From Eubacteriales bacterium (lineage in GTDB: Bacteria > Bacillota > Clostridia > Oscillospirales > CAG-272), in the NCBI GenBank assembly GCA_045533775.1, contig JAZSIK010000054.1:1-61987 (forward strand): a DNA stretch of 61,987 bases, in the 5' to 3' direction. Position numbers and translations under genes: made by a program. This document shows, piece after piece, positions 274 to 28,485 of the stretch; positions within the stretch are counted from its first letter, which is position 1, and each line of letters starts with the position of its first letter. A model generated the notes under the pieces. The model saw only the letters and a program-made list of their open reading frames with translations. It did no database searches and was not told the origin of the DNA.

Positions 274-1797
274 TCAACCAACGACAGAAAAAAGAAAAAG
301 CAGGACTTCTGTCCTGCTTTCTGTCGTTGGTGAAGCAAAGGCTTCAGTATCCGAAATTTTCTCTACCTCGTCGAGCTCGTCGGTTGTGGGAACGGTTATA
401 GGCTCGTTTTTGTAGTTTAAGGTGATTACAAGCTTGTCGTCGTAAAGTAGCACGCATTTGACTAAACTGTCTATCAAGCGCTCTCGATTTCGCTCTAATG
501 TCAAGTCTAGTTTACGAAATTTGTCTACAACGAATATAATCTGCTCTTTCGTGAGCTTGGGAGTACTTGTCTGTTCTTTCAAAATATTAAGCTCGATTTG
601 CTCTTCCTGAGCTTCAAGCTCCTCAAGCTTTGCCTTAGTTGAACGAGTGATAATTCCTGCCTCGATAGCCTTCATTACGTTGTCAATAGACTTTCTAATT
701 TCTTTGAGCTGAGCCTCAAGAAGCGGTATAACCTTATTGTCCTCGTCAAGCAGGGCGACTATTTTGTCAGCAATCTTATCAAGAGCTTCGTCGTCAAATA
801 AAACCTTAATAACCTTATTAAGCACAAGCTCCTCAATCCATTCCTTGCGAACGGCTTTCTTGTCGCACTCGTGCCTCTTTGCACTGGCGCATTTGTAGTA
901 GCGGTAGATATTGCCGTTTTTCTTTTGTGCAGAGTCGGCAACCATCATCGTGTGGCATTTCCCGCAGAAAAGCTTTGTAGTCAGTATGTACTTCTCCTTC
1001 GCCTTATTCTTGGCGGCGGCTCTCTTGTTTTTAGCCATTCTCTGCTGTACTACCTCAAAGGTCTCGGCAGACACTATGGCAGGTACACCGCCCGGGATCT
1101 CAATGCCGTTATAGTGATACACGCCCATATATGATTTATTGGTAAACATTCTATTGAGCGTGCCGTTATTAAACTCTGCGCCCTTCTGCGTTTTAAGACC
1201 TCTTGCGTTAAGGCTACGGACTATGTCTATAATGGATTCACCGTGAGCGTAACGCTCGAATATTTCAGCCACTATGGGAGCTTTTAAGGGGTCAATCTGG
1301 AAGTGCTTCTCCTCGTCAACGGTATAACCGTATAGAAGACCATTGCCACCGTTAAAGCGGCATTTCAAAGCGTTCTCGGTCATGCCTCTCGTTACCTTTT
1401 CTGCAAGGTCAGCTGAATAGTATTCTGCCATGCCTTCAAGCACCGACTCGAGAATTATGCCCTCCGCACCTTCCGAGATAGCCTCGGTCGCCGAAACAAC
1501 GCGAACGTCATTTTTCTTCAAGGCAGCCTTGTATTTCGCACTGTCGTAGCGGTTACGAGAAAAACGGTCAAGCTTCCAAACTATGACTACGTCAAAGGTC
1601 TTCTTCGCGCTGTCGCGTATCATGCGCTGGAACTCGGGACGGTTGTCGGTTTTTGCGGAATATGCCCTATCTATGTAGTGCCCAACTATCGTGATGCCGT
1701 TCTTCTCGGCAAAAGCAGTATTCTCACGAATCTGCCCCTCAATCGACTCCTCTCGCTGATTGTCCGAGGAATACCGAGCGTAAATTACACCTGTCAT
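274..1797 (-). CDS. Large serine recombinase (integrase/excisionase type)
   Basis: 507 aa. N-terminal resolvase motifs VIYARYSSDNQ, SIEGQ and WKLDRFSRN. Central recombinase domain, Cys-rich zinc ribbon (CGKC...YYKC...HEC) and C-terminal coiled coil. Confidence 0.93.
   Translation of the reverse strand: MTGVIYARYSSDNQREESIEGQIRENTAFAEKNGITIVGHYIDRAYSAKTDNRPEFQRMIRDSAKKTFDVVIVWKLDRFSRNRYDSAKYKAALKKNDVRVVSATEAISEGAEGIILESVLEGMAEYYSADLAEKVTRGMTENALKCRFNGGNGLLYGYTVDEEKHFQIDPLKAPIVAEIFERYAHGESIIDIVRSLNARGLKTQKGAEFNNGTLNRMFTNKSYMGVYHYNGIEIPGGVPAIVSAETFEVVQQRMAKNKRAAAKNKAKEKYILTTKLFCGKCHTMMVADSAQKKNGNIYRYYKCASAKRHECDKKAVRKEWIEELVLNKVIKVLFDDEALDKIADKIVALLDEDNKVIPLLEAQLKEIRKSIDNVMKAIEAGIITRSTKAKLEELEAQEEQIELNILKEQTSTPKLTKEQIIFVVDKFRKLDLTLERNRERLIDSLVKCVLLYDDKLVITLNYKNEPITVPTTDELDEVEKISDTEAFASPTTESRTEVLLFLFSVVG
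281..327 (-). terminator. Rho-independent terminator lying inside the last codons of the recombinase ORF
   Basis: On the minus strand: aaagcaggac-agaa-gtcctgcttt followed by ttctttttt. An outer stem acgacag/ctgtcgt encloses it. The ORF stop (274-276) lies beyond the T-run. Confidence 0.6.
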
Positions 1798-8484: not shown

Positions 8485-9273
8485 ATGAAAGTAGAAATAC
8501 ATTCGAGAATGTCAATTAAAAAGCTTATGGGTGAGGGATTCCCCAAAAGCACCGCAGTTATCAGCTTTTATACTCCGCAGAAAATGAGGCGCGCGGAAGA
8601 CATTCGCATAGATTATTCTGGTGTATGCGACAAGGTGTTTTATATAGCAGTTCCCGATATAGACCTTAAATGCCTTTCAGATTACGGTTATACTTACGAT
8701 ACTTATATCGAAGATACTAAAGGACTTGCGGAATTTATATATGAAGCAAATAATAATGATATGGACATTATCTGTCAGTGTGATTTCGGGCAGAGCCGAA
8801 GTGCAGCCTGTGCCGCCGCGATACTCGAGCATTTTGAAGAGAGAGGCATCGAAATATTTGCAGATTACAAATATTATCCCAACCAACTCGTATATCATAA
8901 AATTTACGATGCCCTTAACAAACATTTAAAAGAATCGGCAGACGGAGAGCCGTCTGCGATAGATCCTAATAAAGAATACACATTTGAAGAGGTTGTATCA
9001 ATGCTTCCTGCGGAAACGGAAGAAAGTCGCATTATCGATAAATTTATGCTGCATCTTAAAAAATCTCTCGAATTTATAAAGACGGCAGAGGAGTTTAAAA
9101 CTGTTGATATGCAGCGCTACTTAAAATGCGGATACGGTGACACATGTCGTATTCTTGATGCGCTCGTATTGTTTGGTGTAATTATGGAAACTGAGAATAC
9201 ACCGGTTAGATACAAGGTTGTTTTGAAAGGAGAAAACAGTGCAGGATCCCGCAATAAGAAAGATATTGGTTGA
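8485..9273 (+). CDS. Cx5R phosphatase-like domain fused to an FtsK-gamma-like winged helix
   Basis: CQCDFGQSRSAA contains a C-x5-R P-loop in a COG5350-like context. The C-terminal MQRYLKCGYGDTCRILDALVLFGVI resembles FtsK gamma (VQRRFRIGYNRAARIIEQME). Confidence 0.55.
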   Translation: MKVEIHSRMSIKKLMGEGFPKSTAVISFYTPQKMRRAEDIRIDYSGVCDKVFYIAVPDIDLKCLSDYGYTYDTYIEDTKGLAEFIYEANNNDMDIICQCDFGQSRSAACAAAILEHFEERGIEIFADYKYYPNQLVYHKIYDALNKHLKESADGEPSAIDPNKEYTFEEVVSMLPAETEESRIIDKFMLHLKKSLEFIKTAEEFKTVDMQRYLKCGYGDTCRILDALVLFGVIMETENTPVRYKVVLKGENSAGSRNKKDIG

Positions 9274-12200
9274 ATATCTTAAAATCAAATATAAAGAGCA
9301 CCGTCTATACCAGGAAAAAAGCATAGGTTTTTCTGTTTGTGATGTAATGCTGGTAACCGACAGACTTATCGGTTTTGAGATAAAAAGCGACAAAGATAAC
9401 TATGCCCGTTTAAACTCACAGGTGAAATCCTACGAGGAGTATTTTGATGAAAATTATATCGTAGTAGGTGAAAATCACAAGAAGAGTATCGAAAATCAGA
9501 TCCCAAATGAATGGGGAATCATACTGGTTACCGAGGGAAATATATCAGAGCTGCGTAAAGCACGTAAAAACAAGAATGTTGACAGAGAGTGTCAGTTATC
9601 GTTGCTCTGGAAAATAGAGCTTAAAAATATTCTTATAAAGAACAGACTACCTCTCTATGCTGCAAAGGATAAGGATTTTATTATTTCAAAAATAGTTGCT
9701 GCTGTACCAAAGGATACGCTCATGCATCATATTGCGGACGAGCTTATGAACAGGGATTACAGCGAATATGAATCAAATCTTTTTTACAAATCTCAGACAG
9801 CAGAGGAAGAAAACTCTATACCGCTTGATTTTCGAGCTGATGAGTTGATAGATATGCTTTCCGAGAGGGATCTTGCATCATTTACCCTTGATAAATGGAT
9901 GGCTATATATCAGAGGGCTATTCTAGCGAAGGATGTTAAGGAAAAGGCAACTCAAGAATATGAAGAAAGGCGAAAAAAGGACTCTCAGAAAATTATTCAC
10001 AGAACGCCATACACTGAAATAGAGGTATCTCTTGGCGTGCCGTGGATCAGCGCAGATATTATATCCGATTTTATAAAAGAGGTCTTTAAAGTCAAGCCTT
10101 ACGTTTCCTATATTTACGACAACGTAACCAGAACGTACATCCCCGGAAACAAGGAAAGAGCGCTTGTGGAACACGAGCCTATTACAGGCTATTGGTACGT
10201 TTGTAAGAACGTAAGCTCTGCGGGTGAAATATTTACTACATACGGAACGAGACGAATAAGCGCCTTACATATACTCGAGTCAACGTTAAACCTCAGAGAT
10301 ATAAAAATTCACAACGGCACAGAGTACGACGAGGTTGAAACTATCGCCGCACTTGAAAAGCAGAAAGCAATAAAAGATGCTTTTAAGGAGTGGATATGGA
10401 AGGATGAAGATAGGAAACTTGAGGTTGCCGATGCATATAACCGAATTTTTGGAAAATACGAGGTTGTAAGCTACGACGGTAGCGGACTTAAATTTGTCGA
10501 TATGAATCCCAATATCAAGCTCTTTGATTACCAGAAGAATGCCGTTCAAAAGATAATATCTACTCCTAACACGCTCCTTTCCTTTGATGTGGGTTCAGGA
10601 AAAACCTATATTATGATAGCCGCAGCTATGGAGATGCGTAAATCAGGACTTTCAAGAAAAAATCTCTTCGTAGTTCCTAACAACATTGTAGGTCAGTGGG
10701 AACGAATGTTTTGCGAGCTTTACCCACAGGCTAAGGTGTTGACGGTCGAGCCTAAATCATTCACCCCCGAAAAGAGAGGCAAGGTGCTTCGACAGATACA
10801 GAAGGAAGATTACGACGGAATAATTATGGCATACAGCTCATTTGAAATGATTCATCTTTCATCAGATTATATTTCGAAAAGCATGGGAAACGTGATATCC
10901 GAACTGCAAAAGCGTATGGCAAAATTAAGCCGAGACAATCACACCTCAACCAGCATAAGCCGCGAGGTCGAGCGTGTACGTAAGGTTATCTGCGAGCTTA
11001 CACAGTGCATTTCGGAATCTACCGACGGTATCTTTTTTGAGGATTTGGATATAAACACTCTGTTTGTTGACGAGGCGCACAATTTCAAGAACATTCCTAT
11101 TAGAACCACTATGAAAAATCTGAGAGGAATAAATACAGGGGGTTCGAAAAAATGCCTTGAAATGCTTGAAAAAGTGCACTGCGTTCAGGAAATGAACGGT
11201 GGTCGCGGAGTGGTTTTTGCTACCGGTACACCACTGTCCAATTCTATATCCGACACATACGCAATGCAGTGTTATCTTCAGTATAATGACCTTGCCGAAA
11301 ATGAACTGCAACGCTTCGATAACTGGGCAAAAACCTTTGCAGTGATAGAGGATGTATGCGAGATAGACGTCAATGCGGCAAGCTTTCGTATAATCAAGCG
11401 TTTTACAAAGTTTCACAACCTGCCGGAGCTTTCGCGCATGTTTTCGGGGGTTTCCATCTTTCATAGTGTTAGTAAGGACGGTTTGCCCGAGCTTCTCGGA
11501 TATACCGATGACGTAATAGAGAAAAGCCATGGGCTTGATGACTATATGAAGGAAATATACGAGCGTACCGAGCGTATACGCAATGGAGATGTAGACCGAA
11601 AGAAAGACAATATGTTGAAGATTAGTACTGACGGAAGAAAGGCAGCTCTTTCTCTTAATCTGGTGGGTAAAGAGCAGTTTTATGACGAGTATAGTAAGGT
11701 TTATTGCTGTGTTAAAAACGTAGCGAGAATCTATAATGAAACTCCCGGTAGCTCCCAGCTTGTTTTCTGCGACTATTCCACACCGAAGGGCGCATCGTAT
11801 AGCGTGTATAAGGAGATGAAGGATCGCCTTGTTGAATGCGGGATTCCAAAAAACGAAATAGCCTTTGTCCATTCCTGTAAGACCGAGGATGAAAAAATAA
11901 AGCTTTATGATGATGTAAACGCAGGACGTGTGCGTGTGCTTATAGGTTCTACCTTTAAGCTTGGAATTGGAGCTAACGTGCAAACAAGACTAAAAGCAAT
12001 ACATCACCTTGATGTGCCGTGGCGTCCTGCTGATATGGTGCAGCGAGAGGGCCGTATTCTGCGCCGCGGAAACGAGAATAAGGAAATAAACATTTTCCGA
12101 TATATTGTGGAAGGCAGCTTTGATTCTTATTCTTGGCAGATTCTTCAGACAAAGCAACACTTTATATCGCAGTTTCTCGGTGGAACAAGTAATGTAAGAA

Positions 12201-12859
12201 GCATTGAGGATCTCGAAAATGATGAGCTGAATTATGCGCAGGTAAAGGCGCTGGCACTTTCCGAGCCGCTTATGAAGGAATACGTTGAGAAGGAAAACGA
12301 GATTCGCAATGCTCGTATGGTATACCGACAAGAGCTTGCGCAAAAGGAAAGAGTAAGAACCGATATAAAAGAAACGGAGCTTAAAATCACAGAAGCAACG
12401 ACAGAACTCAGGCTTACAGTAGAAAACGATGAATACGTAAAGGCGAATATAGCCGCAATTACTGAGCAAATTCCAATACTCGCAGAAACCTTGATAACCT
12501 GGCAGAAAAACAAAAGCGATGATGGACGGATAGGTAAAATTTCAGAGTTCTCTGTTTTAGCATCAAGACACAAAAACGGCAACACGTTTCTCGTTCTTTC
12601 GCGCAACGGAATCAATTACTATATGGAAGCGAGCGACTCTTTGTCCGGAAATAAAAAGCGTATCAATAATTTCTTTACTAAGTTTGATAAGCAGATTGAG
12701 GCGAAAGAACATACGCTTAATGAGCTCAAAAAGAAAAAGCTCGAATTAACAGAGCAGTGTGAGTATTCATCGGATATAGTAGATACGATCAAGCGACTCG
12801 AAAGCGAGCTTAGGCACATATTTGCAGAGCTTTCAGTAAAACAGGAGGAAGCAGCGTAA
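9239..12859 (+). CDS. PD-(D/E)xK (sce7726/MmcB-like) N-terminal module fused to an SNF2-family helicase
   Basis: GTG start with SD aggag, overlapping the upstream gene by 35 nt. N terminus CDVMLV...GFEIKSD. Helicase motifs DYQKNAV, DVGSGKT, DEAHNFKN, ATGTPLSNS and HHLDVPWRPADMVQREGRILRRG. C-terminal coiled coil. Confidence 0.85.
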   Translation: MQDPAIRKILVEYLKIKYKEHRLYQEKSIGFSVCDVMLVTDRLIGFEIKSDKDNYARLNSQVKSYEEYFDENYIVVGENHKKSIENQIPNEWGIILVTEGNISELRKARKNKNVDRECQLSLLWKIELKNILIKNRLPLYAAKDKDFIISKIVAAVPKDTLMHHIADELMNRDYSEYESNLFYKSQTAEEENSIPLDFRADELIDMLSERDLASFTLDKWMAIYQRAILAKDVKEKATQEYEERRKKDSQKIIHRTPYTEIEVSLGVPWISADIISDFIKEVFKVKPYVSYIYDNVTRTYIPGNKERALVEHEPITGYWYVCKNVSSAGEIFTTYGTRRISALHILESTLNLRDIKIHNGTEYDEVETIAALEKQKAIKDAFKEWIWKDEDRKLEVADAYNRIFGKYEVVSYDGSGLKFVDMNPNIKLFDYQKNAVQKIISTPNTLLSFDVGSGKTYIMIAAAMEMRKSGLSRKNLFVVPNNIVGQWERMFCELYPQAKVLTVEPKSFTPEKRGKVLRQIQKEDYDGIIMAYSSFEMIHLSSDYISKSMGNVISELQKRMAKLSRDNHTSTSISREVERVRKVICELTQCISESTDGIFFEDLDINTLFVDEAHNFKNIPIRTTMKNLRGINTGGSKKCLEMLEKVHCVQEMNGGRGVVFATGTPLSNSISDTYAMQCYLQYNDLAENELQRFDNWAKTFAVIEDVCEIDVNAASFRIIKRFTKFHNLPELSRMFSGVSIFHSVSKDGLPELLGYTDDVIEKSHGLDDYMKEIYERTERIRNGDVDRKKDNMLKISTDGRKAALSLNLVGKEQFYDEYSKVYCCVKNVARIYNETPGSSQLVFCDYSTPKGASYSVYKEMKDRLVECGIPKNEIAFVHSCKTEDEKIKLYDDVNAGRVRVLIGSTFKLGIGANVQTRLKAIHHLDVPWRPADMVQREGRILRRGNENKEINIFRYIVEGSFDSYSWQILQTKQHFISQFLGGTSNVRSIEDLENDELNYAQVKALALSEPLMKEYVEKENEIRNARMVYRQELAQKERVRTDIKETELKITEATTELRLTVENDEYVKANIAAITEQIPILAETLITWQKNKSDDGRIGKISEFSVLASRHKNGNTFLVLSRNGINYYMEASDSLSGNKKRINNFFTKFDKQIEAKEHTLNELKKKKLELTEQCEYSSDIVDTIKRLESELRHIFAELSVKQEEAA

Positions 12860-12902: not shown

Positions 12903-13703
12903 ATGATACTTAAGTTTAACGAATATATTCCTGCGGTTTTTACGGAAGATGATCTTGAATCAGAATTGCTTGGCGAGTATATCAAGCTTGACGGCACGAG
13001 TCTTATATCCATATGCTCCCGTCCCGGTATGGGTAAGACCGCGTTGGCTCTTAACTTGGCGCTCGACTTTGCAAGAAAAAGCGAAAAATGCGTGTATATA
13101 TTTTCTTATGAAATGACAGCGGAACAGGTTTATGCAAGACTGTTGTCTATATTATCCGGAGTAGACCTAAATAGCATAACGAAACGCATTTTTTCGAAGG
13201 AAGAACTCAAATTACTTAATGACAGTATGGAGTTTATTAAGAGGCTGAATATTATTATCGACGATGATACCTATAACGGTATTTCGGATATGGAAGAGAA
13301 AATTTCAAGGATAGATAATCTTGGAATGATTGTCGTAGATTATCTGGGGTTGATGTTCCCAAGAGAAAATTGTTTGGATAATTATAAAGAAATCGCAACG
13401 CTTGATATGAGAAATCTGTCTCGGAAATTCTCCGTTCCCATATTCTTTACACACAAGCTATCAAAGCGTTTGGAATATCGAAAAGATAAAAGACCTAATA
13501 CAAGTGATGTTGAAAGCTATATAGCACAAAATACGGATACCATGGTTCTGCTTTACCGCGAAGACTACTACCGTGACGGTATTGATAACGAGCGAACGAA
13601 CTTAGCCGAGGTCACAACCTCGAATAAACTCGGGAAAAACGGCACTGTTTGTCTTAATTGGGATGGAGAGTGTATGAAATTTGAAAAGCACGAGGTGAAT
13701 TGA
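12903..13703 (+). CDS. DnaB C-terminal-domain (RecA-like) ATPase lacking the DnaB N-terminal domain
   Basis: SRPGMGKTALALNLAL (Walker A), YEMTAEQV and MIVVDYLGLM. Only 266 aa. Confidence 0.75.
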   Translation: MILKFNEYIPAVFTEDDLESELLGEYIKLDGTSLISICSRPGMGKTALALNLALDFARKSEKCVYIFSYEMTAEQVYARLLSILSGVDLNSITKRIFSKEELKLLNDSMEFIKRLNIIIDDDTYNGISDMEEKISRIDNLGMIVVDYLGLMFPRENCLDNYKEIATLDMRNLSRKFSVPIFFTHKLSKRLEYRKDKRPNTSDVESYIAQNTDTMVLLYREDYYRDGIDNERTNLAEVTTSNKLGKNGTVCLNWDGECMKFEKHEVN

Positions 13704-13704
13704 C

Positions 13705-14580
13705 ATGCTTGGAGCAATTGTTGGTGACGTTCTCGGATCATCTTACGAATTTGAAGAAATGAAATTTGACTGGGTTATGCCTCACAATGAAAATTTGAAA
13801 GATATTCCGTTATTCAATGAGGATGACCAATTTACAGACGATACCGTCTTGACATTAGCTGTTGCGGATTGGTTATTGCATGATATTCAGAAGGATTACT
13901 ACGATGATGAAAAATTAAAAATTGCTTTAGGAAAACGTATGGTTTGGTGGACGCGATTTTATCAGGAACGTGAAATTGCTTACGGTCTTTCTTATATCGA
14001 TTTTTTCTATCGTGCAGAGCTGATACAAGAATACGTACCGCAAAGTAGTTGTGGAAACGGTTCTGCAATGAGAGTTAGCCCTGTTGGTTGGTTTTTTGAT
14101 ACTATGGAAGAAACAATGCGGTTTGCCAAGATTTCAGCAGATGCTACACACAAGCATCCTGAAGGTCAAAAAGGGGCTATGTGTATTGCTGCTGCCATAT
14201 ATTTAGCTCGAAAAGGTAGCAGTAAAGACGAAATCAGAGATTATCTAATACGAGCTTTCGGGTATGAAAAATTAGATAAAGATGTATTAGATTTACGAAA
14301 AAACTATGTGAGAGTTTGCACGTGTCAAGATACAGTTCCCGAATCGGTTGTGTGCTTTTTGGAAAGTGATGATTATGAGTCTGCGGTACGTCTGGCTATC
14401 TCTTTTGGAGGAGATACCGACACTATGGCGGCGATGGCTGGCAGTATAGCTGAGGCGTATTACGGACAAGTTACACCCGACCTGTTTTCATACGCAAAAG
14501 GGAAGCTAACCTCTGAAGCACTCGAGCTTTGCAAAGAATTTTACAAACGAATAAAGAACTGTGAGGGACAAAATGAATAA
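13705..14580 (+). CDS. ADP-ribosylglycohydrolase (ARH/DraG family)
   Basis: GAIVGDVLGSSYEFE, DDTVLTLAV, CGNGSAMRVSPVG and GGDTDTMAAMAGSIAEAYYG. Start 1 nt after the upstream stop. Confidence 0.88.
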   Translation: MLGAIVGDVLGSSYEFEEMKFDWVMPHNENLKDIPLFNEDDQFTDDTVLTLAVADWLLHDIQKDYYDDEKLKIALGKRMVWWTRFYQEREIAYGLSYIDFFYRAELIQEYVPQSSCGNGSAMRVSPVGWFFDTMEETMRFAKISADATHKHPEGQKGAMCIAAAIYLARKGSSKDEIRDYLIRAFGYEKLDKDVLDLRKNYVRVCTCQDTVPESVVCFLESDDYESAVRLAISFGGDTDTMAAMAGSIAEAYYGQVTPDLFSYAKGKLTSEALELCKEFYKRIKNCEGQNE

Positions 14581-15244
14581 TTTCGATACTCAAATTGAAA
14601 TGCTAGTAACGAAGCCGCTAGGATTTTCTCCTGTTGTGATAATTGGAAACGTGGGAAGCGGCAAGACATATTTTCTTGAGAAATATCGTGAAAAACGAAA
14701 TAAGTTTTACAAGCCCGCGTTTGGTGAGTGGGGCGCAGGTGAAGGCGCAAAGATATTTAATGCTGATGAGATTTGTCAAAAAATAATTGACTCTATTGCT
14801 AATGGCAACGGGAAATCGTGGAGTAAAATATTTGCTTCGGTTAATGTAATAATCATAGACGATTTTGATAAGTTGGCTGGAAAAACCACCACCCAAGAAA
14901 TGCTCTTTTCTTACTTTTTAACATGCAAAAAGGCTATTGTTGTGAGCTCGAAATCAGAAATTGCAGGAGAAGGCTTCTTGGAAGAGCTTAGCTCGTTTTT
15001 GTCAACAGGTGCGCACATATATATCAATGATCCGGATAAAGAATCAAAATTCGATTTCCTTGTAAACGGCTTATGTACCGCAGGAATACAAATGGAAAAT
15101 GAAGCTCTTGTATGGCTTTCAAATCAGAATTTTATATCTTATGCTGCCACAAAAGGATTTGTTAAAACTTTACGGCTATTTACAACCGGCGAGCCATTAT
15201 CTCTTTCGGATTGCATTAAGTACACAAAAGGTTATATCAATTAA
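14573..15244 (+). CDS. DnaA-domain-III-like AAA+ ATPase (initiator or helicase-loader type)
   Basis: ATG overlaps the ARH stop (ATGAATAA). VVIIGNVGSGKTYF Walker A. IIIDDFDKLAGKTTTQEMLFSYF resembles DnaA [20 protein letters not shown]. Confidence 0.65.
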   Translation: MNNFDTQIEMLVTKPLGFSPVVIIGNVGSGKTYFLEKYREKRNKFYKPAFGEWGAGEGAKIFNADEICQKIIDSIANGNGKSWSKIFASVNVIIIDDFDKLAGKTTTQEMLFSYFLTCKKAIVVSSKSEIAGEGFLEELSSFLSTGAHIYINDPDKESKFDFLVNGLCTAGIQMENEALVWLSNQNFISYAATKGFVKTLRLFTTGEPLSLSDCIKYTKGYIN

Positions 15245-15259: not shown

Positions 15260-16147
15260 ATGAACGCACTTGACTTTATAAACTCGCGCGATGTCAGAGC
15301 GCATCTTGAAAAGATAGGCTGGCAACCCGATTCGCTCTGCGCTGCGTGGCTTATTTACCAAAGTAAAAACCACACACTTGAAGAAAAGCTTCTTGCGTGG
15401 CAGAGTGTTATAGATAATATGCCGGATTGTGCAGTGCCCGAGAACTATTCAGGTACGTATCACGAAAGCTTACACACGTTTCTGAAAAGATATATTGAGC
15501 TTCAGCACAAGCTTGTTAACTCGTTCAAAAAGTGCAACACGGGAGAGGTTTATTCCTATAAATATTATGGCAAGAACTGTGACGGATTCCTCTCCGACGG
15601 GGGACTTTACTCAAGCTATGAAAAGGTTATGGAAGCTATGAACGAAGAGATATGTGAGGAATACAAGCCTTACGTCTTCAGGCTTACGAAGCGCAGAATA
15701 GATAGTCCCGAACTTGACGTGCACGCTGAGCTTTCGCCGGGACTCGAAATCCGTTCGATTGTCGATATGACCGCTATGATGCTAGGCGAGGATGACGAAG
15801 GGGATATTGAGGTGCTCTTCCGCGTATTCGAGGGAATGTGGTTTGATATTCCTACCCCGTTTTGCCGTGGCGACCTTGTCCGCGAGTGCGGCGGCAAATA
15901 TCACGTCCCTTCAAATTATCGCCAGGAAACGCTTGTTTTTGACTCCATGACAGCGAATAATGAAAACTCCCCTCTTGCACAGGAAAAGGAGGATATGAAC
16001 GCCTATGGATATTTTCCCGACGGTGATGGCGGGGTTTATTACGGATGTGCATTTAATTATATAAGCCTTGAATTTATAACCCCCAATCAGCTCACACCAC
16101 AGGAGGCTATACTGACCTCTCTACCCGTTTTTATCAATAAAATGTAA
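15260..16147 (+). CDS. Hypothetical protein (295 aa)
   Basis: SD aaggag. Sits in the operon between the AAA+ and PolC-like genes. No domain recognised. Confidence 0.5.
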   Translation: MNALDFINSRDVRAHLEKIGWQPDSLCAAWLIYQSKNHTLEEKLLAWQSVIDNMPDCAVPENYSGTYHESLHTFLKRYIELQHKLVNSFKKCNTGEVYSYKYYGKNCDGFLSDGGLYSSYEKVMEAMNEEICEEYKPYVFRLTKRRIDSPELDVHAELSPGLEIRSIVDMTAMMLGEDDEGDIEVLFRVFEGMWFDIPTPFCRGDLVRECGGKYHVPSNYRQETLVFDSMTANNENSPLAQEKEDMNAYGYFPDGDGGVYYGCAFNYISLEFITPNQLTPQEAILTSLPVFINKM

Positions 16148-17488
16148 ATGAAAGTAGGCAAAACAATGGATGATGCATTAAAAAATAAAATTATAAACAC
16201 AAAAATCAATGAGCGCAAAAAGCTTATGAGAGAGCTGTGGAAAAAGGCGGAGGATGCTTTGAAGGCATTATACGGAGATATGCCCGACATGCGAATATTG
16301 AATCGCTTTTACACTGAAAAGATGATTTTCGGCGAGACCGATAGCGTGATTTTATGGGATCTCGTCGCAGAAACAATACATCAGGCAAAGGAAAAAGGAT
16401 ATACAACCACGATTGCAGGAACAGATGGCTCCTGCTTTACAGCATATCTTCTCGGTATGTGTGAAAATCCCCTGCCGCTTCACTACTTGTGTCCAGTATG
16501 CAAGAAAACCGAGTTTATAAACGAGCGTGCGCTGCCTTGGGATATGCCAAACAAGCCTTGCGAGTGCGGTGGCGTGATGCGAGCAGATGGTTTTGACATT
16601 CCTTTTGAAACGCATATCAGAATGGCGCACAGGCCTTGGCCAAATGTTTGTGTTAACCCGGCATTTATGGAAGAAGCAAAGCAAATTGTGAGAAAAAAGG
16701 TGGGCGGTTTGTATCGAATCTGCACGCTCACCAAACCCGACTACGCCCCGGTGAAATTCGTCTTTCTCCCCTTCAACGGAGAATCCGAGTTCGAAGAACA
16801 TGTTGATACAGTAGACGGTAAGTACGACGATTTCCCGCGCATAACGATAATACCGTTTGATTTGTACGAGCGTAAAGCGCGATTGTGTGAGGAAACGGGG
16901 GAAAACTTATTTGAAGGCATTCTTTCTAAAAAGGTCCTTTCCGATCCTCGTATTATAGAGGCATTCGCAAACGGCGATACAGATAATATACCGAATTTCA
17001 CGTCAAAATTCCTTGATATGAAAGAAGCGCTGCGCCTCGCCTCACCGAAGAACTATTATGACCTCTTGCAGTTTATGGGCGCGATGCACGGCACAAACAC
17101 CTGGTGCAATAATGCCGAGTGTCTGATCCGTGACGGAATATGCTCTATCGGAGATATCCCCACTCACAGAGATGATGTGTTTATGCTTCTTCGCGACAAG
17201 CTTCGAGAAGCCGGACACGAGGACGTCGGTATAGCGTATAATCTCGCTATGAAGATTCGTTACGGCATTTCTGCAAACAGAGGTATTAGTGCAGAGGAAC
17301 TCGCTTTACTTGATTACCTCGACCTGCCCGAGTGGTTTATCCCCTATGCCGAAAGAATACAGTATATGTTCTCGAAGGCGCATAACATAGAAAGCCTTCG
17401 CATAGCTCTCACGTTTATGTGGTATAAAATAAATTATCCGAAAGAGTTTGATGCTTGTGTAAAATCGAAGCTTAAGGATCATATTTGA
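16148..17488 (+). CDS. Truncated PolC-like protein 1 (zinc-finger, partial palm and fingers segment; catalytic Asp motif absent)
   Basis: GSCFTAYLLG..NPLPLHYLCPVCKKTEF...CECGGVMRADGFDIPFETH, HGTNTW, HRDDVFMLL and LPEWFIPYAERIQYMFSKAH all match PolC motifs. PolC has PDIDLNF where this ORF reads WPNVCVNPAF. Confidence 0.7.
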   Translation: MKVGKTMDDALKNKIINTKINERKKLMRELWKKAEDALKALYGDMPDMRILNRFYTEKMIFGETDSVILWDLVAETIHQAKEKGYTTTIAGTDGSCFTAYLLGMCENPLPLHYLCPVCKKTEFINERALPWDMPNKPCECGGVMRADGFDIPFETHIRMAHRPWPNVCVNPAFMEEAKQIVRKKVGGLYRICTLTKPDYAPVKFVFLPFNGESEFEEHVDTVDGKYDDFPRITIIPFDLYERKARLCEETGENLFEGILSKKVLSDPRIIEAFANGDTDNIPNFTSKFLDMKEALRLASPKNYYDLLQFMGAMHGTNTWCNNAECLIRDGICSIGDIPTHRDDVFMLLRDKLREAGHEDVGIAYNLAMKIRYGISANRGISAEELALLDYLDLPEWFIPYAERIQYMFSKAHNIESLRIALTFMWYKINYPKEFDACVKSKLKDHI

Positions 17489-17513
17489 TTATTTTAAAAA
17501 GGGTGTATTAAAG

Positions 17514-18779
17514 TTGAATAAAGAAAAAACAAAACTTATAGAAAAAATTTGGCAAAAGGCGGAAAAAGCACTTTATGCCTTATACGGTGATATGCCGGAT
17601 ATTCAAATACTAAACCGCTTTTATAGCGAGAAAATAGCTTTCTGTGAGACCGATAATATAATTATTTGGGATCTTGTCGGAAATATTTGCAGCGAGGCGT
17701 TGTGCCTTGATTATAATGTAAGACCCGTTGGCACTGTCGGATCTTGTTTTACGGCGTATCTTTTGGGAGCATCAATAAACAATCCCTTGCCGCTTCACTA
17801 TCACTGCTCAAGCTGCGGTTGCACCGAATTTGTAGATAAAAGCAATGCACTCCCATTTGATATACCGAGTAAAACTTGTGCTTGCGGTGGAGTGATGTGT
17901 CCCGAAGGATTTGATATCCCGTATGAAATGGACATATCCGTTTCGCACGCTCCACATACATCGCTTTGGGTTTCACCGGGATTTTTAAAAGAGACAAAAC
18001 GAATGGTTTTTGAACGAATGAAAAATCATTACTGCGTCGGAGAATTATCGAATGATATGGGTTATACGAAATTTGCCTTTTTGCCTAAGAATTCCAAAGC
18101 TCATTTTAATGAAAAAGTTGATGTTACAGATGACAGGTATATTATTTTCCCATCACTGACTGTAGGAGATAACCCGCTCTTCGACAAAGCCGAGAAGTTA
18201 ACCGAGAAAACCGGTGTTGATTTTTATGAAATTTATTCCTCTAATTGCAAGGATTATCTTTCGGATGAAAAAATCGTTCGAGAATTTGCATCGGGAAATA
18301 TAGACGGAATCCCCCCTTATTGGAAAGAACCAAGATACAATAACATGAAGGATGTCTTAAAATTTGTCAATCCACAAAGCAGTTATGAACTTTTGAAAGT
18401 TTATAGCGTGTTGCAATGTTCGCGCACATGGGTGGAATACTGCGAAACTTTGCTTCTTAGCGGTGTTTGCATTGCAGATATCCCTACAACAATAGAAGAG
18501 GTGTTTATGCTAGTTCGTGACAAATTAGGATATAGTGGCGCGAGCATTGCCTGCGAGCTGGCAAACAAGATTTGTTATAACAAGCTTGATGCAAATGCAC
18601 TTGCGATACTTTCATTACTGGATCTTCCGAAATGGTTTATTACATACGCCGAAAAAATGAAGTTTATACATGATAAAGTGAGAATGGTTGCTTTCTTGCG
18701 CGAAGCTCTCGCATTTATGTGGTATAAAATAAATTATCCCGAGGCGTTTAAGGAAATTATGCCGAATGATGGATTGTAA
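17514..18779 (+). CDS. Truncated PolC-like protein 2 (paralogue of the 16148 ORF)
   Basis: TTG start. Same motif series: GSCFTAYLLG, NPLPLHYHCSSCGCTEF, CACGGVMCPEGFDIPYE, LPKWFITYAEK and FMWYKINYP. Reads HTSLWVSPGF at the PolC catalytic position. Confidence 0.65.
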   Translation: MNKEKTKLIEKIWQKAEKALYALYGDMPDIQILNRFYSEKIAFCETDNIIIWDLVGNICSEALCLDYNVRPVGTVGSCFTAYLLGASINNPLPLHYHCSSCGCTEFVDKSNALPFDIPSKTCACGGVMCPEGFDIPYEMDISVSHAPHTSLWVSPGFLKETKRMVFERMKNHYCVGELSNDMGYTKFAFLPKNSKAHFNEKVDVTDDRYIIFPSLTVGDNPLFDKAEKLTEKTGVDFYEIYSSNCKDYLSDEKIVREFASGNIDGIPPYWKEPRYNNMKDVLKFVNPQSSYELLKVYSVLQCSRTWVEYCETLLLSGVCIADIPTTIEEVFMLVRDKLGYSGASIACELANKICYNKLDANALAILSLLDLPKWFITYAEKMKFIHDKVRMVAFLREALAFMWYKINYPEAFKEIMPNDGL

Positions 18780-18780
18780 T

Positions 18781-19086
18781 ATGGATAAAACAATTAGTGA
18801 ACAGATAAAAGCTGTAATAGAAGATACTATATCACGGCTTCAAGAGGAAGGCGTAGAGGATATTCGAAAAACGGTAGAATATCTTGAATACGGCTTCAAG
18901 GTTGTGACCTGTCCGATATGCGGTAACGAAACGCTCGATATGTTTTGGGTATGTCAGCATTGCGGTTGGGAATACGATTATTTCTTGAATGAAAATGAAG
19001 AATCACTATCAAACGGCGTAACCATCGCCGAATACAGAGCCGAATATAAAAAAAATATTAATAATAAATCTACAGAAAGGAGATAA
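18781..19086 (+). CDS. Cysteine-rich CPCC-type domain protein
   Basis: CPICGNETLD..WVCQHCGWEYD...NGVTIAEYRAEY. ATG directly after the upstream stop. Confidence 0.6.
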   Translation: MDKTISEQIKAVIEDTISRLQEEGVEDIRKTVEYLEYGFKVVTCPICGNETLDMFWVCQHCGWEYDYFLNENEESLSNGVTIAEYRAEYKKNINNKSTERR

Positions 19087-19253: not shown

Positions 19254-19290
19254 AGACCTGCCGTAAGATGTGACTTGCGGCAGGTCTATT
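19254..19290 (+). terminator. Hairpin terminator ending the 5.9-19.2 kb gene string
   Basis: 10-bp perfect stem agacctgccg (19254-19263) / cggcaggtct (19278-19287). Weak T tract. Confidence 0.6.
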
Positions 19291-19295: not shown

Positions 19296-19324
19296 TTGAA
19301 ATAAACAAAAAATCGTGTTATAAT
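19296..19324 (+). promoter_or_regulatory. SigA-type promoter with an extended -10
   Basis: TTGAAA (19296-19301), 17-nt spacer, then TGtTATAAT (19316-19324), upstream of the LRR gene pair. Confidence 0.6.
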
Positions 19325-19379: not shown

Positions 19380-20132
19380 ATGAGCAACATTAACGATTTT
19401 GTGATGAAAGACAAAGCTCTTGAAAAATCTTCAAGCAAAGAAACTCAAAAGTTTACACTTCCCCACATAAATATATATGAGAGCAAATATGAGAAAATTT
19501 TGGTTGAATATATACCTGACAACTCTTCCAAAACTATAATTATACCCGAAGATGTTGAAATAATAGACCAATTTGCTTTTGATGCGGACGATTCTTTAAC
19601 ATTTTTAAAGGAAGCGTACGGAGAAAATTTTCAATATCCTGACAATATCGGTACAAAATTTATTGAAAAGATCCTAATAAACAAAAGGTTAATAGGGGTC
19701 GAAAACTACGCTTTTTGCGGACTTGAAAATTTGAAAATTATCGAGGTTGATAAAGAAAACCCATATTTTATAGGTGGAGATACCCTGTTTTACACGAAAA
19801 AGGTCTCTCATCCCAATTTCATATGGTGTAGTAGTCAAAAAACAGGAAGTTATACCGTCCCTTCTTGGATAACGGCAATTGGTCCAAAAGCTTTTGCAAA
19901 TTCAAAGTTGGATAGCGTAATACTGCTTGAAAAAATCACTTATATCTGGGATGATTCCTTTGAAAATTGCAAAAACCTCGTTATAAAAGGCTATAAAGGC
20001 AGTTATGCTGAAGAGTATGCAAAAGAAAATGGAATGCCCTTTGAGGCGATAGAAATCGTTATAAAGGGATATGAAGGTAGTTATGCTGAAAAATACGCAG
20101 AAGAAAACGGAATTCCCTTCGAGGCGATATAA
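19380..20132 (+). CDS. BspA-type leucine-rich-repeat protein without a signal peptide, with a duplicated C-terminal motif
   Basis: LRR units (IPEDVEIIDQFAF, IGVENYAFCGLENL, ITAIGPKAFANSKL). The C terminus repeats IKGYKGSYAEEYAKENGMPFEAI / IKGYEGSYAEKYAEENGIPFEAI. Confidence 0.8.
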   Translation: MSNINDFVMKDKALEKSSSKETQKFTLPHINIYESKYEKILVEYIPDNSSKTIIIPEDVEIIDQFAFDADDSLTFLKEAYGENFQYPDNIGTKFIEKILINKRLIGVENYAFCGLENLKIIEVDKENPYFIGGDTLFYTKKVSHPNFIWCSSQKTGSYTVPSWITAIGPKAFANSKLDSVILLEKITYIWDDSFENCKNLVIKGYKGSYAEEYAKENGMPFEAIEIVIKGYEGSYAEKYAEENGIPFEAI

Positions 20133-20151
20133 AAATAAAAGAGGACTTAAT

Positions 20152-21087
20152 ATGAGTTATTATGTAAAAGTAATTGAAAACGGAGTTTTGCAAAGGTATA
20201 TGATTTCTTCAGAGAGTGTCATAGAAATTCCCGAGAATGTTCATACAGTAGCGTCTGACTGTTTTCGTCCAGAGCTTCACGATAATTTCACAAAGGATAT
20301 TTTATATGATCTTTCAAATTGGGATCATACGTGCAAAATTGAAACTGTAGTGATAAGAGAAAACATCAAATTCATTGAAGATGGCGCTTTTTGCGGGCTT
20401 CCTAATCTTAAAAGTTTTGAGGTTGCCACCGACTGCACCGCTGCAAGTGTTTATGACGACGTATTGTTTTCTAGAGATGGCAAAAAGTTGATTTCCTGCC
20501 CGCCTAAAAAGCAAGGAGACCTTGTTGTCCCTCGCGGAACCGAGAAAATATGCGAAGGAGCATTTGAGGAAACCGAGCTTAAACGCATATGTCTGCCCGA
20601 CGGATTGATATGCATTGATGACTACTTCACTTACGGATATTGCCTTGAAGAAATATACATTCCGTCGAGTGTTGTTGATATTACATCCCTTGCTTTTAAA
20701 CACTGTGAAAATCTGGTTATCAAAGCTCCTGGAGGCTCGTATGCGATTCAGTACGCTATGGAAAACAATATTGCATACGAAGAAATCTCCCCCGAGGTTA
20801 TCACCGATATGGCGAACTCCAAAAAGCAGGAATATTGGATTTTGGTGCGAGGCGATGACGGTAATCCTTGTCGTGCAAAAAGATTCGGCTACGCTTATGA
20901 ATGGAATGGATTTACTTTCTTTTCAGACAGAATAATTCCCTCTGATGATACCGTTCCCACCGAAAAAAGAAGCGGAAAAAGCCTTTGCGCGTGGAGCAAA
21001 TTCCTCGAAAGATACGAAAAAAATCCCCAAAAAATAACGAAAATGTTGACCGGCGGAGCCTCGGTTCTCGATTTTCCGGAGTATTGA
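20152..21087 (+). CDS. BspA-type leucine-rich-repeat protein with an extra C-terminal domain
   Basis: ATG 20152 with SD agagga; the track ORF start at 20071 overlaps the upstream gene. LRR units plus the GSYAIQYAMENNIAYEEI motif. About 90 aa of unknown C-terminal extension. Confidence 0.75.
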   Translation: MSYYVKVIENGVLQRYMISSESVIEIPENVHTVASDCFRPELHDNFTKDILYDLSNWDHTCKIETVVIRENIKFIEDGAFCGLPNLKSFEVATDCTAASVYDDVLFSRDGKKLISCPPKKQGDLVVPRGTEKICEGAFEETELKRICLPDGLICIDDYFTYGYCLEEIYIPSSVVDITSLAFKHCENLVIKAPGGSYAIQYAMENNIAYEEISPEVITDMANSKKQEYWILVRGDDGNPCRAKRFGYAYEWNGFTFFSDRIIPSDDTVPTEKRSGKSLCAWSKFLERYEKNPQKITKMLTGGASVLDFPEY

Positions 21088-21100: not shown

Positions 21101-21478
21101 ATGAAAGATTTTGAAAGCAAATTGCCAAAAATAAAAGAAATGATCGCTGAAAAGCTCGAAGCATTAAGGGTTCCGAAACGACTTAAGGGATACGATTATC
21201 TTGTAAGCGCAATTCTTTTATTAGTAGAGGATTCCGATTACATATTGAATAAAGAAAAGCTTTATTCCGAGGTTGCACAAAAGCACAATAGTACAATGTT
21301 AAGCGTTGAAAAATGCATAGAACGAGCTGTCAGCGAAACACTTGCTAACGGAAATAAATCTGAGCTGGACAAATACTTTGGTTACACAATAGCAAACGGA
21401 AGCACTCCGTCAACCTCAGAATTTGTGGCAATGATATCGGATGCGATAAGGTTGGTTTTAAAATATCAATTGCTTTGA
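21101..21478 (+). CDS. Stand-alone Spo0A C-terminal (DNA-binding) domain protein with no receiver domain
   Basis: KGYDYLVSAILL...LYSEVAQKHNSTMLSVEKCIERAV...FGYT...PSTSEFVAMISDAIRL is colinear with Spo0A [54 protein letters not shown]. Confidence 0.85.
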   Translation: MKDFESKLPKIKEMIAEKLEALRVPKRLKGYDYLVSAILLLVEDSDYILNKEKLYSEVAQKHNSTMLSVEKCIERAVSETLANGNKSELDKYFGYTIANGSTPSTSEFVAMISDAIRLVLKYQLL

Positions 21479-24583: not shown

Positions 24584-24658
24584 TGGTGACCCGTACGGGA
24601 ATCGAACCCATGTTTTCAGCGTGAGAGGCTGATGTCTTAACCGCTTGACCAACGGGCC
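24584..24658 (-). tRNA. tRNA-Glu (anticodon CUC), CCA encoded
   Basis: The reverse complement reads GGCCCGTTGGTCAAGCGGTTAAGACATCAGCCTCTCACGCTGAAAACATGGGTTCGATTCCCGTACGGGTCACCA. It folds as a cloverleaf with anticodon loop CTCTCAC. The first 26 nt are identical to the Bacillus tRNA-Glu as I remember it. Confidence 0.9.
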
Positions 24659-27822: not shown

Positions 27823-28248
27823 ATGAACAAACTAAGAATTATTGACAATCTGAAAATACTTGAAGAAATTGACAAGGTGGCAATAGAAGCATCCCTTATT
27901 TGCGATTGTGGTAACGAATGGTTTTATGTATTGCATACGGGCAAGAAAACAAAAGGACTCCTTAGCCCTTGGCTGGTAAAAAGCAACAAGCAAATCTCCG
28001 TTATGTGCAAATGTAGGGACTGTGGTAAAAAAATAACCGTATGTGACACCACAATTGATGGCTTAAAGCCATTATATATTGATAAACCCGACTACGCGGA
28101 ACTAGAAATAAAAGGTAAAAACATATTCAAAATTATTCTTTATTACAATTATCAAGAAAAGGACTATCTGACAAATCGCTTTTACGATTGCTTTATACAT
28201 GCGATAGACGAGGAAGGCAAAAAGCGAATACTGTATGAAGGTTGGTAA
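27823..28248 (+). CDS. Hypothetical Cys-rich (zinc-ribbon-like) protein
   Basis: 141 aa from ATG 27823 with SD aaggagag. Cys pairs CDCG...CKCRDCG. Confidence 0.5.
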   Translation: MNKLRIIDNLKILEEIDKVAIEASLICDCGNEWFYVLHTGKKTKGLLSPWLVKSNKQISVMCKCRDCGKKITVCDTTIDGLKPLYIDKPDYAELEIKGKNIFKIILYYNYQEKDYLTNRFYDCFIHAIDEEGKKRILYEGW

Positions 28249-28255
28249 TAAATAT

Positions 28256-28303
28256 ACCTTTTGGCTTTACAGCCGCGTGGAGAATGTCGTTTGTCTGACG
28301 AGA
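28256..28303 (+). repeat. Repeat R2 copy a
   Basis: accttttgg...cgtggagaatgt... is roughly 70% identical to 30787-30835. Confidence 0.55.
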
Positions 28304-28429
28304 AAATAAGCCAAAATCGGCTCAAAATGGGCAAAATCAAGCCGTTTTAAGCGATTTTGAGATAAAAATTCAAAAAATTAGTGTTCAAAGTTAAAAAATG
28401 CCCCAAGTTTGCGTTGGGACAAATAATGA

Positions 28430-28485
28430 TTTTGAGCGAAACTCGAAACTTCAATTTACATCTGTTTGGTATAACATATCGAAAG
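28430..28485 (+). repeat. Leader repeat R1 copy b
   Basis: ttttgagcgaaactcgaaacttcaatttacatctgtttggtataacatatcgaaag lies upstream of the restriction gene. Confidence 0.7.

Follow-up and report, generated by a model that had tools for sequence, protein, structure and literature searches.

To our knowledge, the DNA polymerases of the C family are regarded as large and invariably catalytic. In the Y family, ImuB is an inactive polymerase of the ImuA-ImuB-DnaE2 mutasome, encoded beside the active machinery that it is thought to serve (PMC3919608; PMC12926913). A truncated polymerase of the A family, CCPol, forms a primase together with a small partner, MP, on the serine-recombinase element SCCmec (PMC7581432, PMC10061031). 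Of two systematic surveys, one left out sequence fragments whose active site was not intact (PMC3919608) and the other excluded sequences that were truncated or had diverged strongly (PMC12926913), and catalytically dead, miniaturised forms of PolC (dead mini-PolC) were therefore missed.

The window, which is the whole stretch of DNA analysed (61,987 nucleotides, contig JAZSIK010000054.1 of a Eubacteriales bacterium), carries two adjacent open reading frames, ORF-A and ORF-B (Table 1), whose products are very probably non-catalytic pseudo-polymerase descendants of the PolC polymerase core. The two are paralogs with 44% identity across 419 residues (E = 5e-122). A preliminary description made from the sequence alone had placed the two ORFs at the coordinates confirmed here and had read their products as adjacent, shrunken PolC relatives without catalytic function on a mobile element; searches by sequence, by profile and by structure upheld this reading. 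The pair resembles ImuB in that a polymerase fold has been selected for after catalysis was lost, as judged from dN/dS values and residue loss, and differs from it in belonging to the C rather than the Y family, in its extreme domain loss, its tandem paralogs and its mobile-element setting; mini-PolC also differs in having no identified clamp-binding motif and no partner polymerase encoded nearby. The arrangement is likewise similar to that of CCPol-MP and the Cch helicase of SCCmec, with a truncated polymerase and a small partner beside a helicase, on an element mobilised by large serine recombinases. Unlike CCPol, which is catalytically active and of the A family, mini-PolC is of the C family and has lost its active site, and the SSB-like MP has no sequence or fold relation to the 295-aa partner encoded here.

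Table 1. Features of the locus and its surroundings, with positions in the window.
Feature	Position	Strand	Remark
Large serine recombinase	274..1797	-	Left end of low-GC island
1206-aa protein, sce7726-type N-terminal domain and SNF2/ResIII helicase	9239..12859	+	First large operon gene; conserved in L087, L088
DnaB_C-only helicase, RecA-like domain without N-terminal domain	12903..13703	+	
ADP-ribosylglycohydrolase	13705..14580	+	Optional operon member
227-aa AAA+ protein resembling DnaA domain III / Hda	14561..15244	+	Without DNA-binding domain IV
295-aa protein, no recognised fold	15260..16147	+	Most constant neighbour of mini-PolC genes
ORF-A, 446 aa	16148..17488	+	A-type dead mini-PolC: palm, zinc finger and fingers
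ORF-A Cys4 zinc finger (CPVC ... CECGG)	16490..16573	+	
ORF-A strand PWPNVCVNP replacing catalytic PDIDLNF	16634..16660	+	No acidic residue
ORF-A RITIIP replacing PolC KLDILG	16838..16855	+	Third catalytic Asp replaced by Thr
Identical 26-nt stretch, copy 1	17414..17439	+	Encodes FMWYKINYP (in ORF-A)
ORF-B, 421 aa	17514..18779	+	B-type dead mini-PolC, more degenerate than ORF-A
ORF-B Cys4 zinc finger (CSSC ... CACGG)	17805..17891	+	
ORF-B strand PHTSLWVSP replacing catalytic DxD strand	17952..17978	+	
Identical 26-nt stretch, copy 2	18714..18739	+	Encodes FMWYKINYP (in ORF-B)
CPCC zinc-ribbon protein	18766..19086	+	Last operon gene
14-bp inverted repeat (hairpin)	19254..19287	+	Past operon
tRNA-Glu(CTC)	24584..24658	-	Right edge of low-GC island

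The homology to PolC was found to be strong. ORF-A matched the PolC of G. kaustophilus (3f2b) with an E value of 1.4e-38 in two blocks, query residues 23–170 corresponding to chain index 415–563 and residues 273–434 to 733–883, and the PolC of E. faecium (9qpc) with an E value of 1.3e-34; ORF-B matched 3f2b with an E value of 2.2e-16, and the profile of the dead mini-PolC family matched PolC with an E value of 1e-65. The homologous span comprises PolC residues ~829–1297 (Geobacillus numbering, set from PDIDLN as D973/D975), with matched parts at ~829–977 and ~1147–1297. The AlphaFold model (pLDDT 93.6) presented a palm and fingers fold and, when compared with PolC structures (3f2c/9qpc) using Foldseek, gave TM values of 0.75–0.77 with E values of ~1e-20. 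Common to PolC (3F2B/3F2C, 9QPC) and the pair are the palm/fingers fold, the PolC-type Cys4 zinc finger and the motifs NPLxxHY and DG(F/H)DIPFE, and every motif pair proposed in the preliminary description was recovered in the alignments of ORF-A and ORF-B with PolC. All four zinc-finger cysteines are present in both ORFs, and the finger is kept in 195 of the 198 mini-length family members. The finger motifs HGTxxW, RDD and YMFxKAH are shared by PolC and ORF-A, which reads HGTNTW, HRDDVF and YMFSKAH, and the corresponding motifs of ORF-B are QCSRTW, TIEEVF and FIHDKVR. Unlike PolC, the mini-PolC proteins have one third of the PolC length, and the scores of ORF-A and ORF-B lay far below the cut-offs of the curated PolC models NF001688 (165 and 69 bits, respectively, against 873) and TIGR01405 (159 and 73 bits, respectively, against 1043). 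Neither net charge nor pI distinguished the family from the core of PolC.

Both ORFs start at the equivalent of PolC residue ~829 and stop 9–12 residues past the fingers, where PolC runs on for 146–184 residues. The N-terminal, OB, PHP and exonuclease domains are absent, a Pfam scan of both ORFs giving no PHP or RNase_T match, and so are the C-terminal (HhH)2 duplex-binding region and the beta-clamp binding motif. These absences had been described correctly, but the missing middle piece, then taken for a part of the palm, appears to be mainly the thumb subdomain and not the palm sheet. About 90 residues lie between the two palm halves in mini-PolC, compared with 141–158 in PolC, and the family profile left residues ~1017–1089 of the E. 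faecium PolC unmatched; judging from these lengths, most of the thumb has apparently been lost from both ORFs.

The catalytic triad was scored as D973, D975 and D1098 of Geobacillus, located in PDxDxN and KxDxLG. The strand equivalent to PDIDLN of PolC reads RMAHRPWPNVCVNPA in ORF-A and SVSHAPHTSLWVSPG in ORF-B and, as first claimed from the raw sequence, contains no acidic residue; the strand was aligned in two registers, 2 residues apart, and neither placed an acidic residue there. At the KxDxLG position ORF-B reads SLTVGD, and almost every other family member has Thr, Ala, Ser or a gap in place of the third Asp. The GS motif of the Pol-beta-like nucleotidyltransferase palm (RGS in PolC) is AGT in ORF-A and VGT in ORF-B, with KAP, TGT, RGT and others across the family. 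The losses of the third Asp and of the GS motif are additional to those of the preliminary description. The His that forms the steric gate never varies in Pol III alpha (PMC8485763) but is not conserved within the dead mini-PolC family. All nucleotidyl-transfer residues are gone from ORF-A and ORF-B, and nearly all of the family likewise lacks the triad. Despite the loss of every catalytic residue, both ORFs are maintained by selection, their reading frames being unbroken and their dN/dS values, about 0.25–0.33 against close orthologs within an overall range of 0.13–0.33, indicating purifying selection.

The dead mini-PolC family was defined by a length of 360–450 aa, full profile coverage in one or two stretches, a score well above that of PolC, a retained zinc finger and an absent DxD, and it includes both ORFs, with A1 profile scores of 641 bits for ORF-A and 514 bits for ORF-B. 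With a 120-sequence family profile, other members reached 476 bits or more and were thereby cleanly set apart from true PolC, which did not exceed 247 bits. There are at least 59 representatives at 50% identity, each with at least 275 bits, and the motifs and zinc finger are invariant over 120 clusters. The family occurs almost solely in uncultured gut Clostridia and is carried mainly by their integrative elements, with the exception of an HTH-fused subgroup of single genes amid ordinary chromosomal genes; its rarity and mostly mobile location argue against a common housekeeping family. A scan of GTDB species representatives returned almost exclusively genuine PolC genes, since the search pattern is common to both, and only L001 and L002 were family members. 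Isolated phages and plasmids yielded full-length PolC genes only, a Lactococcus megaplasmid match included, and the significant matches in BFVD were longer C-family polymerases (606–1348 aa). Known defence, anti-defence or phage families were rejected for the pair, as PADLOC and PHROGs gave no match for ORF-A, ORF-B or the 295-aa partner. A literature search turned up no paper describing the family, in line with the earlier remark that such a pair had no described function, and the family thus appears to be previously undescribed.

The pair shares one operon with DnaB_C-like and DnaA-like genes, as the preliminary description had stated, and the recombinase of the window is CcrB-like (E = 3.5e-41). 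Mini-PolC recurs in serine-recombinase elements as 1–3 tandem copies (2 in L088, 3 in L093), and both lengths and neighbours are conserved among elements diverged to 30–80% identity. The neighbours across elements are of replication type, namely DnaB_C, DnaA/Hda-like AAA+, FtsK, TubZ-like tubulin and the 295-aa partner. The gene for this partner lies directly upstream of mini-PolC in the window, L087, L093 and L094 and two genes upstream in L089, and in L088 the protein is fused to an FtsK ATPase. The partner is acidic, its model was of moderate confidence (pLDDT 73) and gave no match in the PDB better than E = 0.17, and it was rejected as a further PolC fragment after comparison. The N-terminus of the AAA+ protein has a conserved QIExL, a candidate clamp-binding motif that may serve as a lead, and homologs of the CPCC zinc-ribbon protein occur in every related element compared that had enough flanking DNA. 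Neither an iteron array nor an evident origin was found near the operon, and the best promoter-like site lies at 19296–19324, after the hairpin. The element also carries conflict-type genes, encoding the SNF2/sce7726 protein, the ADP-ribosylglycohydrolase and BspA-type repeat proteins.

Dead mini-PolC is probably a non-enzymatic part of the replication machinery of the element. More specifically, it is tentatively proposed, with slightly less than even confidence, to be a non-catalytic, hetero-oligomeric scaffold coupled to the element helicase and serving replication or establishment. The two paralogs would assemble into a hetero-oligomer that acts as a non-enzymatic scaffold within the replication/establishment module, physically joined to the DnaB_C-type helicase, the Hda/DnaA-like AAA+ protein and the conserved 295-aa partner; through the PolC surfaces that remain, it would engage either DNA (fork or primer-template) or a component of the host replisome, and the element would be copied by host polymerases. 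The recurring paralog arrays and the replication-type neighbours point to such a scaffold, and a structural role coupled to the helicase is favoured by the fusions: P0139 contains two dead cores within one chain, P0212 joins DnaB_C to a dead core, and P0169 joins DnaB_C to PHP and a core retaining PDVDLN. The DnaB_C fusions also indirectly support the idea that mini-PolC may bridge replisome parts as an ImuB-like scaffold. The roles suggested earlier (replisome hijacking, a decoy and a structural subunit) are all still conjectural, a structural subunit being favoured by the fusions. Against the scaffold, the helicase gene does not always accompany mini-PolC: L089 and L094 have no DnaB_C. The isolated position of the HTH-fused subgroup and the lack of iterons or an evident origin near the operon also count against it. 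We know of no element of this type for which replication has been shown. The HhH domains of C-family polymerases contribute DNA contacts. Such contacts are contributed by the thumb as well (PMC3919608), and it is doubtful that the core, without the HhH domains and apparently without most of the thumb, binds DNA strongly by itself.

A second role, possible though rather unlikely, is that of a sensor or targeting module, in which the dead core recognises a DNA structure, such as a stalled 3' end or a lesion bound in the former active-site cleft, or a nucleotide-like ligand, and signals to an attached or neighbouring effector. The effector would be either an HTH domain for transcription control or an ADP-ribosyl hydrolase undoing host-defence ADP-ribosylation of DNA or replisome proteins. 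About 44 of the 198 mini-length members are extended at the N-terminus by 80–100 residues, and this part was HTH_3 or an FtsK-gamma winged helix in those scanned, and the chromosomal HTH-fused subgroup stands alone, without replication partners, so that the dead core can work outside a replication module. In P0011 the core is fused to an ADP-ribosylglycohydrolase, the window operon encodes a separate one, P0278 of the sister group has a NADAR gene three genes upstream, and most family members retain Lys410 together with the finger motifs RDD and HGT. However, even the finger motifs are lost in ORF-B and its orthologs, which form their own clade, the residues that hold nucleotide and metal (GS motif, three Asp and steric-gate His) are not conserved, ADP-ribose hydrolases were found in only 3 of the 9 contexts examined, and known defence and anti-defence families gave no match.

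A joint reading, which is quite unlikely when taken as a whole, combines an evolutionary series on mobile elements with dead cores as a new replisome adaptor and with host recruitment of the core as a sensor. The series would run from the helicase-fused PolC replicase P0169 through a free-standing, possibly active minimal C-family polymerase of ~436 aa (P0171) to obligate paired dead cores, the adaptor would dock the DnaB_C helicase of the element onto the host Pol III machinery, and the recruited core would serve an XRE-type transcription factor as the domain that senses replisome or DNA-end status. Pairing in this series takes the form of either separate A and B proteins or two cores in one chain (P0139).

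It is improbable that the pair is a decoy or inhibitor, mimicking the PolC core and either titrating a host factor that contacts PolC, with host replication slowed to the benefit of the element, or absorbing a host or rival factor that attacks PolC. ORF-A retains PolC-like surface motifs without catalysis, and the location is a mobile element beside conflict-type genes. Nevertheless, the parts by which C-family polymerases are known to bind partners are missing: the clamp motif, the C-terminal region and also the proofreader-docking PHP domain. The conserved tandem paralogs, the single-chain double core and the helicase fusions suggest an assembled machine more than a mere mimic, and the chromosomal HTH fusions are not what a decoy would lead one to expect.

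Very improbable is a cryptic enzyme, in which the pair, possibly assisted by the acidic 295-aa protein, makes primers or DNA through a non-canonical or trans-complemented active site. CCPol and MP of SCCmec are a precedent, and the metagenomic protein P0171 (436 aa) keeps the DxD (PDIDIN), KIDILG and KAH, reading RGC at the GS position; with these motifs intact, a core of ~436 aa may be active, and P0171 may be an active minimal polymerase. P0171 and its sister group (P0186, P0278, P0279 and P0280) share size and domain content (only palm, zinc finger and fingers) with the pair and have gene neighbours unlike those of the dead family; a rough NJ tree places them between PolC and the dead mini-PolC proteins, and P0186 is already degenerate (PDIALN). 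Within the dead family, on the other hand, no conserved acidic substitute was found in the catalytic strands of about 190 members, the GS motif is lost, and the conserved D132, D147/D150, E154 and D342/D343 are just as conserved in PolC without being catalytic there. That the ORFs are decaying, functionless remnants of an element-borne polC can practically be dismissed: the catalytic residues and most domains are gone and ORF-B is the more degenerate, but the frames are intact under the dN/dS values given above, the motifs and zinc finger are invariant across the clusters, lengths and neighbours persist between diverged elements and the predicted fold is very confident.

If dead mini-PolC is indeed such a pseudo-polymerase, it would be the first pseudo-polymerase branch of the C family and a conserved, stand-alone dead palm and fingers core. 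Its tight link to element helicases would provide a handle on the replication or establishment of integrative elements in gut Clostridia, and the 436-aa sister form, which may be active, would rank as the smallest polymerase core of the C family and be useful for enzymology. The HTH fusions would suggest that a polymerase core is reusable as a regulatory domain.

An identical 26-nt stretch had also been reported for ORF-A and ORF-B. It is real, with 0 such identities expected by chance, and its second copy begins at 18714 as described, but the first begins at 17414 and not at 17412. The same 26 nucleotides, plus or minus one, were found in 5 of 6 homologous genes checked from other elements, and other conserved family codons displayed an equally strong codon preference. 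Because the stretch recurs in these homologs and the codon preference is general, no special DNA-level explanation is needed; a functional DNA or RNA element and a gene-conversion tract were both ruled out, the identity being accounted for by the conserved FMWYKINYP and general codon fixation.

ORF-A and ORF-B are homologs of PolC that show, of the enzymatic and architectural hallmarks of that family, only the palm and fingers fold and the zinc finger. The two proteins are paralogous, with 44% of 419 aligned residues identical (E 5e-122). ORF-A matched the PolC chains of G. kaustophilus (3f2b, E 1.4e-38) and E. faecium (9qpc, E 1.3e-34) in two blocks (query 23-170 and 273-434), ORF-B matched both chains with E values of ~2e-16, and a family profile (n = 58 members) matched them with E values of 1e-65 and 2e-63, respectively. 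All the motif pairs through which the preliminary description had related the tandem proteins to PolC were present in the alignments. Pfam alone is insufficient to see this kinship, since it gave a weak DNA_pol3_finger match in ORF-A and no match in ORF-B. The NCBIfam PolC models scored both proteins far under their cut-offs.

With PolC positions numbered from PDIDLN as D973/D975 (Geobacillus numbering), the ORF-A blocks correspond to PolC residues ~829-977, from the palm start through the catalytic strand, and ~1147-1297 in the fingers. The clostridial PolC proteins compared have 823-876 residues N-terminal and 146-184 C-terminal of the shared region, compared with 29 and 12 in ORF-A and 11 and 9 in ORF-B; from these flank lengths, the N-terminal, OB, PHP and exonuclease domains and the (HhH)2/clamp-binding region are missing from both. 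The gap between the palm halves is ~90 residues in the mini proteins versus 141-158 in PolC, and E. faecium PolC residues ~1017-1089 had no match in the family profile. As this is where the thumb interrupts the palm of PolC (PMC12592400), most of the thumb has probably gone, judging by length. The AlphaFold2 model of ORF-A, with the family alignment as input, was very confident (pLDDT 93.6, pTM 0.91) and resembled PolC structures most closely (TM 0.75-0.77, E ~1e-20), followed by DnaE structures (TM 0.5-0.6).

The fold is that of the PolC palm and fingers, stripped of the catalytic apparatus. Between the pairwise and the profile alignment the DxD strand shifts by two residues, and in neither register does RMAHRPWPNVCVNPA (ORF-A) or SVSHAPHTSLWVSPG (ORF-B) contain an acidic residue, in agreement with the catalytic loss proposed earlier. 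The third Asp of PolC (KLDILG) aligns with RITIIP in ORF-A and SLTVGD in ORF-B, and family-wide this column holds Asp in only 2 of 120 proteins and otherwise Thr, Ala, Ser or a gap. The RGS motif is replaced by AGT and VGT, respectively. The steric-gate His, invariant among Pol III alpha (PMC8485763), is present in ORF-A, replaced by Arg in ORF-B and not conserved family-wide. Invariant or nearly so are the four zinc-finger Cys, NPL, His112, Asp132, GFDIPFE and Lys410, as well as the finger motifs HGTxxW, RDD(V/I)F and W(F/Y); HGT, RDD and YMFxKAH are further losses of ORF-B, shared with its close orthologs. Both genes are under purifying selection, with dN/dS values of 0.27 for ORF-A against its homolog on contig L087, 0.25-0.33 for ORF-B against its orthologs and 0.13 between the two (dS saturated). 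The identical 26-mer noted previously in both genes was located at 17414-17439 and 18714-18739, where it codes FMWYKINYP; of the six homologous genes compared, five carry it to within one nucleotide, and a conserved peptide together with codon preference accounts for it.

A word-indexed search of 5.8 billion proteins gave 144 clusters, nearly all of 360-450 aa, and an exhaustive profile search gave 59 representatives at 50% identity with at least 275 bits, almost all of 296-540 aa. The family HMM separated members (at least 476 bits) from genuine PolC (at most 247 bits). Where a source was named, it was an uncultured member of the Clostridia or Lachnospiraceae from the gut of animals or humans; among the best 80 of 594 confirmed matches in species-representative genomes, only two loci (L001 and L002) held members. 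None was found in the isolated phages and plasmids searched, and significant BFVD matches were longer C-family polymerases (606-1348 aa). The zinc finger was kept in 195 of 198 mini-length proteins and PDxDxN in only ~6. Among the latter, P0171 (436 aa; 1983-3293 of the 3.4 kb contig L092) also retains KIDILG and KAH, with RGC at the GS position, and with these catalytic motifs could be a minimal C-family polymerase that is still active. In a rough NJ tree it branches between PolC and the dead forms; degeneration is already evident in part of its small sister group. The same tree gave an A clade (ORF-A, the L087 protein and the second copy of L093) and a B clade (ORF-B, the second copy of L088 and the third of L093).

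The same kind of helicase domain is fused to both dead and DxD-bearing cores: P0212, complete within its 3.2 kb contig, has DnaB_C followed by a dead core, and P0169 has DnaB_C, homologous to the helicase of the window, with PHP and a core retaining PDVDLN. Paralog pairs persist, and P0139 unites two dead cores in a single chain after an N-terminal region that looks OB-like by eye. P0121 joins an FtsK-gamma winged helix to the core.

The pair lies on a low-GC island (window 1-24700; GC 0.36-0.42 versus ~0.5 beyond), which may extend past the left edge of the window and showed no recognisable genes for capsid, terminase, relaxase or type IV secretion. The operon with DnaB_C-like and DnaA-like ATPases described previously was recovered as a tight + strand unit, in the order sce7726/SNF2 helicase, DnaB_C-only helicase, ADP-ribosylglycohydrolase, AAA+, 295-aa protein, ORF-A, ORF-B and CPCC zinc ribbon, with no + strand terminator-like site of note inside it; the neighbours of the pair are replication-type genes. 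The sce7726/SNF2 protein bears a weak resemblance to the helicase region of DISARM DrmD, and its length is almost unchanged in L087 and L088. The AAA+ protein has an N-terminal QIExL, conserved among orthologs and loosely like the Hda clamp-binding motif, and in the L093 ortholog the Walker A motif is degenerate, reading GNIPFYKA. The 295-aa protein has just 12 homolog clusters, and its moderate model found no fold match in the PDB.

Features of the low-GC island and the operon
Feature	Position	Strand	Remark
Large serine recombinase, CcrB-like	274-1797	-	Left bound of island
sce7726 N-terminal domain + SNF2/ResIII helicase	9239-12859		1206 aa; operon member
ADP-ribosylglycohydrolase	13705-14580		Separate gene in operon
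DnaA-domain-III/Hda-like AAA+	14561-15244		Lacks DNA-binding domain
295-aa acidic protein	15260-16147		Directly 5' of ORF-A in operon
ORF-A	16148-17488	+	446 aa
ORF-B	17514-18779	+	421 aa; adjacent to ORF-A
Hairpin	19254-19287		After operon; followed by strong promoter-like site
tRNA-Glu	24584-24658		Right bound of island

In the neighbourhoods compared, the most constant companions of mini-PolC genes are the 295-aa and CPCC proteins. Among related elements, L087 carries one copy; L088 two, with the 295-aa protein fused to an FtsK ATPase; L093 three, the middle one fused to a glycohydrolase; and L089 and L001 a 365-aa subgroup with TnpV, PemK and a serine recombinase. On L094, a tubulin/FtsZ-family gene (11283-11834) stands directly 3' of the single copy, the contig ending within or just past it, which hints that this element may have a segregating, plasmid-like life stage.

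A fold without catalysis, selection, paralog pairs, replication neighbours and helicase fusions point, tentatively and at somewhat less than even odds, to descent from helicase-coupled PolC replicases borne on elements, the dead cores persisting as a hetero-oligomeric scaffold on the element's helicase and AAA+ protein. Such a scaffold would hold DNA or a part of the host replisome, with synthesis left to host polymerases. A sensor or targeting module is unlikely, at roughly one chance in four, and would draw on two observations. N-terminal extensions of 80-100 residues occur on ~44 proteins, those scanned being HTH_3 plus core, and all three gene contexts looked up were single genes amid ordinary chromosomal genes. 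ADP-ribose hydrolases also recur near mini-PolC, as the glycohydrolase of the window, the core-glycohydrolase fusion P0011 (L093 10001-12253) and a NADAR gene (L099 3933-4415) close to P0278, a protein of the P0171 sister group. A decoy or inhibitor is improbable, a cryptic enzyme very improbable, and a decaying remnant scarcely credible.

Inactivated polymerase scaffolds of the ImuB type are similar to the pair in its proposed function, and the truncated CCPol-MP-helicase module of SCCmec in its setting, but both belong to other families. Of the two systematic surveys of C-family polymerases, one filtered out fragments that lacked an intact active site (PMC3919608) and the other excluded sequences that were truncated or had diverged strongly (PMC12926913); full-text literature searches gave no account of such a dead mini-PolC family. 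We rate it as a miniaturised pseudo-polymerase borne by mobile elements, which would be the first of its kind among C-family polymerases.

The island also encodes three BspA-type LRR_5 proteins (6390-7100, 19380-20132 and 20071-21087), the last two ORFs overlapping at a 78-nt tandem duplication (19978-20133) that repeats a C-terminal peptide; LRR_5 genes also occur near mini-PolC in L087, L088, L089 and L093. A stand-alone Spo0A C-terminal DNA-binding domain (125 aa, 21101-21478) is shared with L087. A second low-GC patch (0.37; 28000-32000), with ORFs at 28520-32042, lies inside the GC-richer host region.
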